A DNA stretch of 64,000 bases from positions 64,001 through 128,000 of the forward strand of contig OY970296.1 of the NCBI GenBank assembly GCA_963716175.1. Reading direction: 5' to 3'. The position numbers and the translations under genes were made by a program. The stretch's first letter is position 1; each line of letters begins with the position of its first letter. The notes below the pieces were generated by a model. The model made no database searches and was not told where the DNA came from. It saw only the letters and a list, made by a program, of their open reading frames with translations. Below, piece by piece: positions 52,358 to 54,779 of the stretch. The DNA comes from an uncultured Armatimonadetes bacterium. Lineage in GTDB: Bacteria > Armatimonadota > Hebobacteria > Hebobacterales > Hebobacteraceae.

Positions 52358-52417
52358 AATCTACAATGATTCCTCGATTTCGTCCAATCGTGCACCACGG
52401 GCGATGTGCTACACTCG
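52358..52417 (+). promoter_or_regulatory. Activator-dependent promoter of P6 (putative AraC sites)
   Basis: AATCTACAATGATTC..GTCCAAT..TGCTACACTCG, with the same spacing as 54720-54779. Confidence 0.7.
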
Positions 52418-52609
52418 CGCAGACGCCAAGGCCGGGAGCGCCTGGCCTGAAAGAGGCCGAGGGCTCGGCTTTGCCATGGCGGATCTGAGCGGAACCGAAC
52501 CACGAAGGAGAAGGGTGGTGAGAGTAGGTTCATCTGGTTCGCAGTGCCGAAATGAGCGCACTGCTGGTGATCAAGAGACTGACGGACTGGGAAAGGAACA
52601 GGCGGCACC

Positions 52610-53614
52610 ATGTGCACACGATTAAAGGGCTTCACCCTAATAGAGTTGCTCGTAGTTATCGCGATCATCGCGATTTTGGCGGCGATGCTCTTCCCAGTGT
52701 TCGCCCGAGCGCGGGAATCGGCTCGGAAGATTCAGTGCCTGTCGAACGTGAAGAACATCGCCATGGGGATCCAGATGTACCTGAGCGACTATGACCGACT
52801 GTGGCCCTTCGAGCACAACCAGGAGGCGGTTGGGATCTGGGTCCATGGCGGCGATTGCAGCGACAATGATGCCAGGCGCAATGCCACGTGCGCCAACCCG
52901 TACCTGAGGGAGCCGGTGATCCTGGACGAGTACATCAAGAACCGGGATGTGTGGCGGTGCCCGAGCGCCAGGTTCGAGCGAGGGGCGATCATCATCACGT
53001 CGAGTCTCCCCGGCCGACCGTACTGGCAGGATTGGTTGGACAATTCTGACATCATCGGTTGCCCGCCTGCAATCAACTGCGATGCGGTGGCGTTTCCCCC
53101 CGGGTGGGGCGGCGACGTGACCGACAGTCTGGTTCAGCGGACGTGCGGAGGAGTAGACGGCGGGTTCAAGTGGAGTATCTCCCCGAACTGGTGGATGCAC
53201 GACCTCAAGTCGTCAGCGGTGAACGATCCGTCCAGGTTCGTCGCCACCGGCGAGGGCTTCCGAGGGGCCACGCTGCAGGACGGGAACACACTGGCTTACG
53301 GCGACATCTGCGGAAACAACGAGTGGTACCGGTCCTGCGGCGACCAGCCGAGCTCCGACTGCCCGTGGACCTTCGATTGCCAGTTTGACGGACCCGACCA
53401 GCACTTCCAGTTCTGGGCCGATCCGTCATACCGCAAGACATGGGCTCGTCACATGGGTGGACTGAGCATCGGGTTCCTGGACGGGCACGCACAGTGGTAC
53501 GCTTCGGACGCGGTGCTGGCCCTGTCGCCGGGCGGGCATGGGCCGGATGCGGATCATATGGTCCAAAACCCGAACCCCCACTTCGAGGGAGATCTGTGCG
53601 TGTGTGCTCCCTAG
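52610..53614 (+). CDS. Prepilin-type / H-X9-DG protein P6 (intact)
   Basis: [27 protein letters not shown]. Confidence 0.92.
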
Positions 53615-53746
53615 CGCGCGAGCCCTGCTCCCCCTGAACCGACCGAGGAGGGTGCCCAATGGACCCTCCTCGGTGTCGTTGGTTCGGCCGCGCGAGCCAA
53701 CCCGCGCGCGTGCCGGCGGGATCGCTTGCGAGGGGAGCGCTCAGGC

Positions 53747-54700
53747 CTAGGGGCCGGCGAAACTCCTCTTTCCCTCGCGATACTGCAGCGGCGTACACCC
53801 ATATGCTCTGCTGAAGACGTGGTGCAGATGACTCGCGTCGGCAAATCCGGTCTGATCAGCAAGGGCCGTGAGCGACAATCCCGTAGTAGACAGCAACCTC
53901 TCCACGTGCCAGAGCCGAACCCGCACGCGGAACTTGTGGAAGCTCACGCCGAACGCGCGCCGGAAGATGCTGTTGAACTCGGTCAGACTCAACCGGCAGG
54001 CCGCCGCCGCCTCGGGCACAGTCAGGCGGCACGCAGGATCGGCGTGGGTAAGATCCACCGCCGGCACCACCCTTGAGAGATCCCCCGCTCGCACCGGGTG
54101 CGGATGAACCGGGAGCTTCGGCCAGGTGTCTCGACTGACCTCCCACAGCAGACGAAGGACGCTGAGCCTTACGGCCACAACCCATCTCGCTCTCCGCTCG
54201 GCTCTTTTGCCACGGCGTGTGCAGGTGGCCGCCAGCCGCGGGGTCGGCGGGCCCGCAAAGGGCCGGACCGTTTCGCTGCAGATCTCCCGGGCTATGGCCA
54301 GCGTGCGCTGGCGCATCTGCGGGGTCGTGACCCGGGGACGTTCCTCCGGCGCCAGGGCGAAAAGCCTGAGCCATGACAGGCCCCCAAAGGTCGCATCACC
54401 GAGAAACTCGGGCAGGAAAAGCAGTGGCAGCAGCTCCGTGTTCGGCACCGTGGTTCTCCAGGTGTGCGGCTCCCACGCCATACAAAGCCAGATATCGCCT
54501 GGTCCTAGGGGAAACACGTGTTGCTCCACTCGCATTTCGTATCGGCCTCCCAGCACGACGCCCACCTCAAAGCACTCGTGTATCTCGGTCGCCGGCGAGG
54601 TTGGAGAGGGGTGGCTTGTCACACCCCCCACGAAAGGCACGTCGGAGCTGACCGTGTACTCGGTTCTCTCAGGAGGCGCGGACGCCACTGCGCCCTCCAC
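53747..54700 (-). CDS. AraC-family transcriptional regulator
   Basis: Cupin (HECFEVG, WEPH) plus tandem HTH (ALADQTGFADASHLHHVF..YGCTP.QYR). Confidence 0.9.
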   Translation of the reverse strand: MEGAVASAPPERTEYTVSSDVPFVGGVTSHPSPTSPATEIHECFEVGVVLGGRYEMRVEQHVFPLGPGDIWLCMAWEPHTWRTTVPNTELLPLLFLPEFLGDATFGGLSWLRLFALAPEERPRVTTPQMRQRTLAIAREICSETVRPFAGPPTPRLAATCTRRGKRAERRARWVVAVRLSVLRLLWEVSRDTWPKLPVHPHPVRAGDLSRVVPAVDLTHADPACRLTVPEAAAACRLSLTEFNSIFRRAFGVSFHKFRVRVRLWHVERLLSTTGLSLTALADQTGFADASHLHHVFSRAYGCTPLQYREGKRSFAGP

Positions 54701-54719
54701 TTCACGCCAGGTTCAGCCG

Positions 54720-54779
54720 AATCTACAATGATTCATCAGTTCTGTCCAATGACGCATCAGACCTGCCATGCTACACTCG
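54720..54779 (+). promoter_or_regulatory. Activator-dependent promoter of the GH2-like/DUF6785 operon
   Basis: Same motif as 52358-52417; divergent from araC. Confidence 0.7.

Follow-up and report, generated by a model that had tools for sequence, protein, structure and literature searches.

We analyzed a stretch of 64,000 nucleotides from an uncultured Armatimonadetes bacterium (GenBank assembly GCA_963716175.1, contig OY970296.1, positions 64,001 to 128,000). This stretch is called the window below, and positions are those of the window unless another sequence is named. Two short parts of it, site A (52358-52417) and site B (54720-54779), lie on either side of a gene encoding an AraC-type regulator. 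Site A stands upstream of the gene of a pilin-like protein, P6, and site B stands upstream of genes encoding a distant GH2-like protein and a DUF6785 membrane protein. Judging from the sequence, we consider it likely that this AraC binds both sites as a dimer, co-regulates P6 and the GH2-like/DUF6785 operon, and controls its own promoter at site B. We infer activation rather than repression by AraC.

Two promoter stretches share three blocks at identical spacing

By reading both stretches directly, we confirmed that they have three blocks in common, as an earlier note on this DNA had claimed. These are AATCTACAATGATTC, GTCCAAT (24 nt from the start of the first block) and TGCTACACTCG (49 nt from the same point), and their spacing is identical in the two sites. 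The finer geometry given in the earlier note was also found at both sites. The starts of the CAAT cores are separated by 21 bp (52364 and 52385 in site A, 54726 and 54747 in site B), and the second of them begins 25 bp ahead of TACACT. The half-site core common to the two sites is T(A/C)CAA, repeated at 21 bp, and in site B the two 21-bp units of the direct repeat have 14 of their 21 bases in common. The last 1-2 nt of GTCCAAT reach into the -35 position, 17 nt ahead of TGnTACACT, and the half-sites are centred at about -57 and -37 relative to the inferred start. The further claim that there is no consensus -35 stood for site A, where this position reads ATCGTG and agrees with TTGACA at 1 of 6 positions, which is poor. 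It did not stand for site B, where ATGACG, 17 bp before TACACT, agrees at 4 of 6. The elements of the two sites are listed here; G005 is the closest of the relatives introduced below.

52358-52372, plus strand: distal half-site of site A, AATCTACAATGATTC, at about -64 to -50; identical at 15/15 positions to site B and to the G005 orthologue
52382-52388, plus strand: proximal half-site core of site A, GTCCAAT, at about -40 to -34; the poor -35 ATCGTG follows
52407-52417, plus strand: extended -10 of site A, TGCTACACTCG, with TGn and with TACACT at 52410-52415; inferred start at about 52422
54720-54734, plus strand: distal half-site of site B, AATCTACAATGATTC; on the minus strand, 54725-54720 reads TAGATT, a candidate -10 of araC
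54743-54754, plus strand: proximal half-site of site B, TGTCCAATGACG, with GTCCAAT at 54744-54750 and the forward -35-like hexamer ATGACG at 54749-54754
54748-54743, minus strand: proximal block of site B on the other strand, TGGACA, a candidate -35 of the araC promoter
54769-54779, plus strand: extended -10 of site B, TGCTACACTCG; inferred start at about 54784, with a leader of only 13-16 nt

The recurrence of the blocks exceeded what shuffled sequence gives. With up to 3 mismatches, the 15-mer AATCTACAATGATTC had 3 matches in the window against 0.19 expected, and none of 100 shuffles reached 3. The three matches were the 2 exact copies and one 3-mismatch match at 30885. The gapped 36-nt second half had 2 matches in the window, while 0.00 were expected (100 shuffles).

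The features of an AraC/XylS tandem operator at a class II promoter, where the operator overlaps the -35, are present at the level of sequence: direct half-sites lie about 21 bp apart, the proximal one abuts the predicted -35, and an AraC gene stands at the locus. AraC half-sites are 17 bp long. The earlier note took such half-sites, about 21 bp apart and overlapping the -35, to be established for this family, and the geometry does match that of araI1 and araI2, which the excerpt of PMC11983282 used here describes as direct repeats with 4 bp between them and a partial overlap with the -35 box.

The two stretches would be the operator-promoters of one local regulon, each with two direct-repeat half-sites followed by the extended -10 TGCTACACT. 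Once it has bound sugar, AraC would occupy both half-sites as a dimer and bring in RNA polymerase. Site A would turn on P6, site B would turn on the GH2-like/DUF6785 operon, and occupancy of site B by AraC would also limit transcription of araC. The blocks of site B are at the same time the candidate -35 and -10 of araC itself on the other strand, therefore autoregulation is likely.

The blocks are kept while the spacers between them differ

We compared site A with site B, and site B with the corresponding site of G005. Identical positions were counted as follows.

Three blocks: A against B, 33/33; B against G005, distal block 15/15, GTCCAAT 7/7, -10 block 7/11
Two spacers: A against B, 10/27; B against G005, 24/27
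20-bp upstream flank: A against B, 11/20; B against G005, 14/20

Neutral positions have hardly changed between the genome of the window and G005. As the earlier note would lead one to expect, the site is conserved at this orthologous locus, where all three blocks are kept except for 4 positions of the -10 block.

The likeness of the two sites might be a functionless leftover of a segmental duplication that took place during the rearrangement described below. A rearrangement did happen next to a transposase remnant, and the 20-bp upstream flanks are alike at 11 positions. However, a neutral copy would decay evenly, and here every block position is kept while 17 of the 27 spacer positions differ. 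Since the spacers of sites A and B are randomised and the blocks are intact, the blocks are under purifying selection and a recent functionless copy is ruled out. We regard a leftover of this kind as barely credible.

The motif follows AraC genes in the genome and in the family

We scanned the whole genome (4,560,930 bp, 66% G+C). The exact 15-mer AATCTACAATGATTC has 2 copies in it, both at sites A and B. When as many as 1, 2 or 3 mismatches were allowed, there were 2, 3 and 12 matches, respectively, and 4 of the 12 have the full layout, namely both window sites and genome positions 2548806 and 2550482. The composite TACAA-N13-17-TCCAAT has 4 matches in the genome, confined to two AraC loci. 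The idea that the motif is a dispersed repeat, named in the earlier note as an outcome that would speak against it, was rejected on these counts. Nor did we find the numbers of a dispersed repeat or miniature mobile element in the wider class of sites described next, which has 12-14 members in the genome, all but 2 of them at AraC loci.

The general layout of this class is TACA(A/G)G(A/G)A, 15 nt, C-C/A-A-(A/G)-TGAC, 17-18 nt and TAnnnT, often with TGn before TAnnnT; its short form is TACAnGAA, 15 nt, CCAATGAC, 17-18 nt, TAnnnT. The genome has 9 cupin-AraC paralogues with 36-51% protein identity (36-47% by tblastn), and the general layout is present in the flank of all nine loci. Each of the nine has a pilin-like gene within 512 bp, and seven are divergent from that gene. 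A matrix made from 11 sites recovered all 11 and one further AraC-linked site at 28.5 bits. The next four matches scored 12.2-14.7 bits, and no others were above 12. Near two of the 12 strong sites (genome 4334368 and 1865095) there is no AraC gene. One AraC-less 'orphan' site (genome 1863501-1867500) has a divergent sulfatase gene that is split over two overlapping frames, 1751-2383 and 1768-3243 of that piece, which is a frameshift or an assembly error.

The second locus with the full layout (sites 2548806 and 2550482) has a paralogous cupin-AraC gene and two pilin-like genes with a site in front of each, as well as GH9, GH5, GH20-like and DUF6785 genes. The pilin-like genes stand in tandem (genome 2540001-2558000; 8500-10520 of that piece, minus strand), with leaders of 400-500 nt. 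These leaders are alike, and so is a relic of the araC start region; we read this as a duplicated block of araC 5' end, site, leader and pilin-like gene.

We searched 40 relatives, comprising 14 genomes of the same family and 26 genomes of other families. Homologues of AraC (E ≤ 1e-20) were found in all 14 genomes of the same family and in none of the 26 others. The pattern TACARKRA-N15-CARTGAC had 24 matches in 10 of the 15 family genomes, and the reversed control had 0. At 19 of the 23 distinct family sites, an AraC-like N-terminus is encoded on the opposite strand, 23-226 bp away; one of the 4 sites without a divergent AraC has only 342 bp of contig upstream. These counts, together with the nine paralogue loci, bear out the link between motif and regulator. 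A pilin-type N-terminus is encoded 216-580 nt downstream of 17 of the 23 sites, and site B is among the 6 without one. None of the 30 non-redundant family sites departs from the 21-bp spacing of the cores. A match to the 22 specified bases of the distal and proximal blocks in an unrelated 38-kb AT-rich metagenome contig (1500-1530) was set aside as probably due to chance in a very large collection; it has neither the -10 block nor TGAC.

The variants of the site go together with the branches of the regulator tree. The AraC clade of 2617, 4363 and 3192 (support 0.975) pairs with the site class TACAGGAA...GTACA, and the group formed by the window regulator with 3896, 2550 and 2889 pairs with TACAA...GTCCA sites (the TACAATGA/GTCCA class). 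The site variant of the window is conserved with orthologues of the window AraC in each sampled lineage (83% protein or 88-93% DNA identity). G011 has another AraC (39-49% identity) ahead of the same target genes, and the distal block differs. In an alignment of the nine paralogues, the presumed second recognition helix, (A/V)DxSH(L/F)H, is well conserved and the presumed first helix is variable; we take the placement of these helices from MarA/AraC structures. A conserved second and a variable first helix would suit a core common to the paralogues and a further part specific to each.

The sites could be read by another regulator, such as a paralogue of AraC working in trans or a global factor unrelated to it, and the adjacent araC gene would then be coincidental. 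The similar cores of the paralogues allow such cross-talk, and the two strong sites without an AraC gene nearby are in line with it. We nevertheless find it very unlikely, because the exact variant of the window is unique to its locus and conserved with orthologues of the window AraC, and because 19 of the 23 family sites adjoin an AraC gene.

A probable operator and a candidate core promoter in the same blocks

The blocks of site B can also be read as promoter hexamers. The minus strand has TGGACA, 17 nt and TAGATT (9/12), which was flagged independently by a consensus scan, and the plus strand has ATGACG, 17 nt and TACACT (8/12), with TGn. Site B therefore has, in terms of consensus matches only, the hexamers of a bidirectional sigma-70-type pair on both strands at 16-18 nt spacing. 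The predicted start of the araC mRNA from the reverse promoter lies at about 54713, just before GGAGG and the start codon GTG 54688. Another forward -10, TACAAT (TTCACG, 17 nt, TACAAT), was tried and rejected, as most family sites read TACAAG there.

In the 30 non-redundant family sites, the reverse strand keeps TAnnnT in 27 and a -35 with at least 4/6 in 18. On the forward strand a -35 with at least 4/6 is present in 27 and a -10 in 26, of which 11 have TGn. TACA and CARTGAC were set in the pattern by which the sites of the relatives were found. The reverse -10 is completed by the A at -4, which this pattern left free and which 26 of 29 sites have.

These counts would suit an explanation in which the blocks are only the core elements of two back-to-back sigma-70-type promoters, and AraC binds elsewhere or not there. 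So would the presence of the blocks at all paralogues in spite of the low identity of the proteins. Three observations speak against it. Site A has no gene in the reverse direction, only a transposase remnant, and its forward -35 is lost, yet the distal block and GTCCAAT are intact (22/22) while the spacers are randomised. Therefore, the blocks of site A would serve the forward promoter otherwise than as core hexamers, and activator binding would be the obvious route. Next, CA(A/G)G(A/G)A, the conserved sequence that follows TA, is part of the reverse spacer and corresponds to no hexamer, although its conservation is partly fixed by the search pattern in the relatives and the sites of the own genome were chosen by adjacency. 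Finally, generic hexamers would not be restricted to AraC loci. We therefore judge promoters alone to be an unlikely explanation. The tandem half-sites and the reverse promoter both fit the sequence, and the two readings are not mutually exclusive.

Several points weigh against binding of AraC at the shared blocks. Core promoter hexamers on the two strands can largely explain the blocks common to all paralogues, and from regulators with only 36-51% identity one would expect recognition sequences that differ more. The search pattern fixes TACA and CARTGAC, so that conservation there is partly built in. The match between site classes and AraC clades may come from common descent and not from recognition. 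With ATGACG, 17 nt and TGnTACACT, site B might fire without an activator. Lastly, site A is hard to fit into a simple history: its -10 block agrees with site B at 11/11 positions but with G005 at 7/11, while its spacers look saturated.

The local AraC might also act mainly as a repressor, occluding an active extended -10 promoter until sugar releases it. The -35 of site B is indeed fair and its -10 is extended by TGn, and the half-sites overlap the -35 regions of both promoters. Moreover, E. coli AraC represses in the absence of arabinose, as stated in the excerpt of PMC11983282. On the other side, the -35 of site A is unusable (1/6), which is typical of activator-dependent promoters. The positions of the half-sites, about -57 and -37, also match those of activation-competent AraC at araI1/araI2. 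Most members of the AraC/XylS family are activators. Taken together, we think it quite improbable that repression is the main role of this AraC, and we favour its binding as an activator at both sites.

The locus is rearranged with respect to relatives

In G005 (AraC 83% identical), one contig has araC on the minus strand, the site, a leader of about 190 nt, the P6 orthologue and the GH2-like orthologue (86%). The gene order of G011 is the same, i.e. araC, site, pilin-like gene and GH2-like gene. Both genomes belong to another genus, and in both the pilin-like and GH2-like genes adjoin behind one site. A third lineage (metagenome contigs L057 and L060; araC with 92.6% DNA identity) has araC, the site and a pilin-like gene. 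The link between the pilin-like protein and the hydrolase is thus older than the motif pair of the window. The P6 and GH2-like orthologues of G011 (2158002-2161988, ~440) are broken into several frames with internal stops, a pattern in line with indel errors, the assembly being a single contig with 65% completeness.

The window has a different order: P6 is followed by araC and site B, and only then by the GH2-like gene. The sequence is homologous to G005 up to 54773, within the -10 of site B, and again from 54786 onwards, 11 nt ahead of ATG 54797. We therefore place a rearrangement joint at the -10 of site B, which would account for the predicted short leader of the GH2-like mRNA. On the other side, the following feature stands 185 bp upstream of site A.

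51990-52173, minus strand: 3' remnant of a DDE (rve-type) transposase gene, with an approximate low boundary

About 50 amino acids of its translation match at least 12 other loci of the genome at 54-76%, and a full copy of the transposase, at 20417-21790 of the window, carries Pfam rve and rve_3. The remnant itself has no Pfam match and flat codon-position G+C. We read it as the mark of a rearrangement breakpoint.

The coding region of P6 is 85% identical to that of the G005 orthologue. Its leader did not align with the G005 leader better than shuffles did (global alignment score -5.5 against -6.1 for shuffles, sd 5.5). Because the leader is unalignable although the coding region is 85% identical, the region upstream of P6 was replaced and not simply inherited. 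We did not find any other copy of site A with its leader in the genome (blastn-short). Two candidates in this region were rejected. An araC pseudogene upstream of site A was not supported by blastx of 51300-52620 against 9 AraC paralogues, which gave nothing below E 0.3, and the open reading frame 51673-52173, considered as a real divergent gene, has no Pfam/NCBIfam family and no codon-position G+C signal.

The two-site layout appears to be derived from an ancestral unit of araC, site, pilin-like gene and GH2-like gene. A transposase-linked rearrangement would have split this unit, and both halves would have kept or regained a site.

The regulator, the target genes and their surroundings

The genes and other features at the locus are listed below.

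53747-54700, minus strand: cupin-AraC regulator gene (Pfam HTH_18 E 4.2e-19, HTH_AraC E 1.1e-15, Cupin_2)
52418-52609, plus strand: leader of P6, about 190 nt, with a degenerate Shine-Dalgarno-like box GAAGGAGAAGGGTGGTGA at about 52505-52522
52610-53614, plus strand: P6, prepilin-type pilin-like protein (N_methyl PF07963 E 1.2e-08; N-terminal part of DUF1559 PF07596 E 1.7e-07)
53643-53673, no strand: perfect 11-bp stem with a 9-nt loop, CCGAGGAGGGT...ACCCTCCTCGG, between the convergent P6 and araC genes
54797-58384, plus strand: distant GH2-like protein of 1195 aa (PDB beta-galactosidase 3dec E 6.1e-09 over residues 89-400, and other GH2 chains)
58436-60460, plus strand: DUF6785/DUF6784 polytopic membrane protein (PF20581 E 1.9e-142, PF20580 E 2.6e-31)
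60836-62050: IS110-family transposase gene (Pfam), directly after the DUF6785 gene

The regulator starts at GTG 54700 or, more likely, at GTG 54688, which has GGAGG 5 nt upstream. Its double helix-turn-helix (HTH) domain is above the Pfam cut-offs (PF12833 69.0 bits, cut-off 33.6; PF00165 57.8 bits, cut-off 26.6), and its cupin domain (PF07883 Cupin_2, residues 35-84) passes by a small margin, with 28.8 bits against 27.2. The DNA-binding domain matches the AraC domain in PDB entry 2k9s (E 2.6e-06) and XylR. We found no named NCBIfam equivalog among AraC, MelR, RhaS/RhaR and XylR; the best was AraC NF007860, with 39.6 bits against a cut-off of 208.

P6 has an H-x9-DG motif near its C-terminus, scores 31.6 bits with TIGR02532 (cut-off 16.3) and has a G+C of 0.80 at codon position 3. 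A strong Shine-Dalgarno-like box, GA(A/G)AGGAGGTGA, occurs 67-95 nt before the start codon in 32-34 of the 55 pilin-like genes. It lies well upstream of the real ribosome site, with no start codon at usable spacing, and resembles the mRNA-stabilising 'STAB-SD' leaders of Bacillus. There was no Rfam match at gathering score in 51300-55000. The sole match below the threshold was snoR9 (E 0.2) at 54082-54121, outside the P6 leader and at chance level. Three metatranscriptome runs contained next to nothing of the window. The stem at 53643-53673 is probably a two-way terminator; it lacks a T run and so was not listed by the terminator scan. Another pilin-like gene of the window, 50354-51316 on the minus strand, has a leader (51317-51410) with nearly the same 90 nt or so as at genome positions 2805526 and 2814011. 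The near-identical leaders of the three genes suggest recent duplication of promoter-leader-gene units.

In the GH2-like gene, ATG 54800 has better ribosome-site spacing than ATG 54797. We did not observe any Pfam family at E ≤ 0.001 in the GH2-like protein, and the NCBIfam GH2 models were far below their cut-offs. The DUF6785 gene follows 51 bp after it on the same strand and probably belongs to the same operon. The DUF6785 protein has ten hydrophobic segments; its single-sequence AlphaFold model had a predicted local distance difference test score (pLDDT) of 39.9 and was unusable. After merging of matches, there were 55 pilin-like loci and 45 DUF6785 loci in the genome, and a pilin-like gene stands directly upstream of only 9 of the 45 DUF6785 genes. 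The IS110 gene and the rve remnant are mobile-element genes that bracket the rearranged regulon.

Comparison with known systems

Overall, the regulatory mechanism proposed here is of the textbook AraC/XylS kind. E. coli AraC limits transcription at its own promoter. The E. coli araC/araBAD system resembles the window in having a cupin plus double-HTH regulator divergent from its target, and in autoregulation at the divergent promoter, which is predicted here. It also has direct half-sites 21 bp apart from centre to centre, with the proximal one, as far as the excerpt of PMC11983282 describes it, partly over the -35. The differences are in the half-site, TAGC...TCCATA in E. coli and an unrelated T(A/C)CAA core here, and in the position of the half-sites, which coincide here with the regulator's own -35 and -10 in an intergenic region of about 100 bp. 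Moreover, the first target here is a pilin-like gene and not a catabolic enzyme, and the window pair is rearranged into two separate promoters.

RhaS/RhaR, XylS at Pm and MelR are alike in combining a ligand-sensing N-terminal domain with a two-HTH C-terminal domain and in serving several promoters of a small regulon. The NCBIfam models of AraC, MelR and RhaR/RhaS match only the C-terminal part of the window regulator, far below the cut-offs. According to the excerpt of PMC11983282, RhaS binds inverted repeats, unlike the sites of the window.

The polysaccharide utilisation loci of Bacteroidota are alike in logic, with many paralogous loci that each have a sugar sensor, hydrolases and a surface/membrane uptake pair. 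The regulators here are of another family than those of the SusC/SusD loci, which have hybrid two-component or SusR-type sensors. A Pfam scan of open reading frames in two of the AraC loci showed no SusC/SusD genes.

Significance

What is unusual in this system is the pilin-like DUF1559 target, the coincidence of the half-sites with the regulator's own core promoter, and the rearrangement of the locus into two promoters. Our literature search, judged from its search results, returned no paper on DUF6785 and nothing relevant on DUF1559 pilins, H-X9-DG or the pairing of AraC and pilin-like genes in Armatimonadota. The DUF1559/H-x9-DG pilin-like proteins and the DUF6785 proteins are very large families without an assigned function. 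With the operator model and a sugar-type sensor in each module, the ligand of the sensor would point to the substrate of the pilin-like protein. The value of the finding would lie in the annotation of a regulon in uncultured Armatimonadota, and in a testable sugar-dependent switch for the DUF1559 and DUF6785 families.

A broader idea, which we put forward as possible and still doubtful, is that an element of about 31 bp doubles as the AraC operator and as the regulator's own promoter, and that DUF1559 proteins are the first sugar-induced part of a Sus-independent glycan import. If this is true, a design that activates the target and throttles the regulator itself would span the paralogous AraC/pilin-like modules of one Armatimonadota family. 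Each module would then be tuned to one substrate and would serve the capture and import of glycans.

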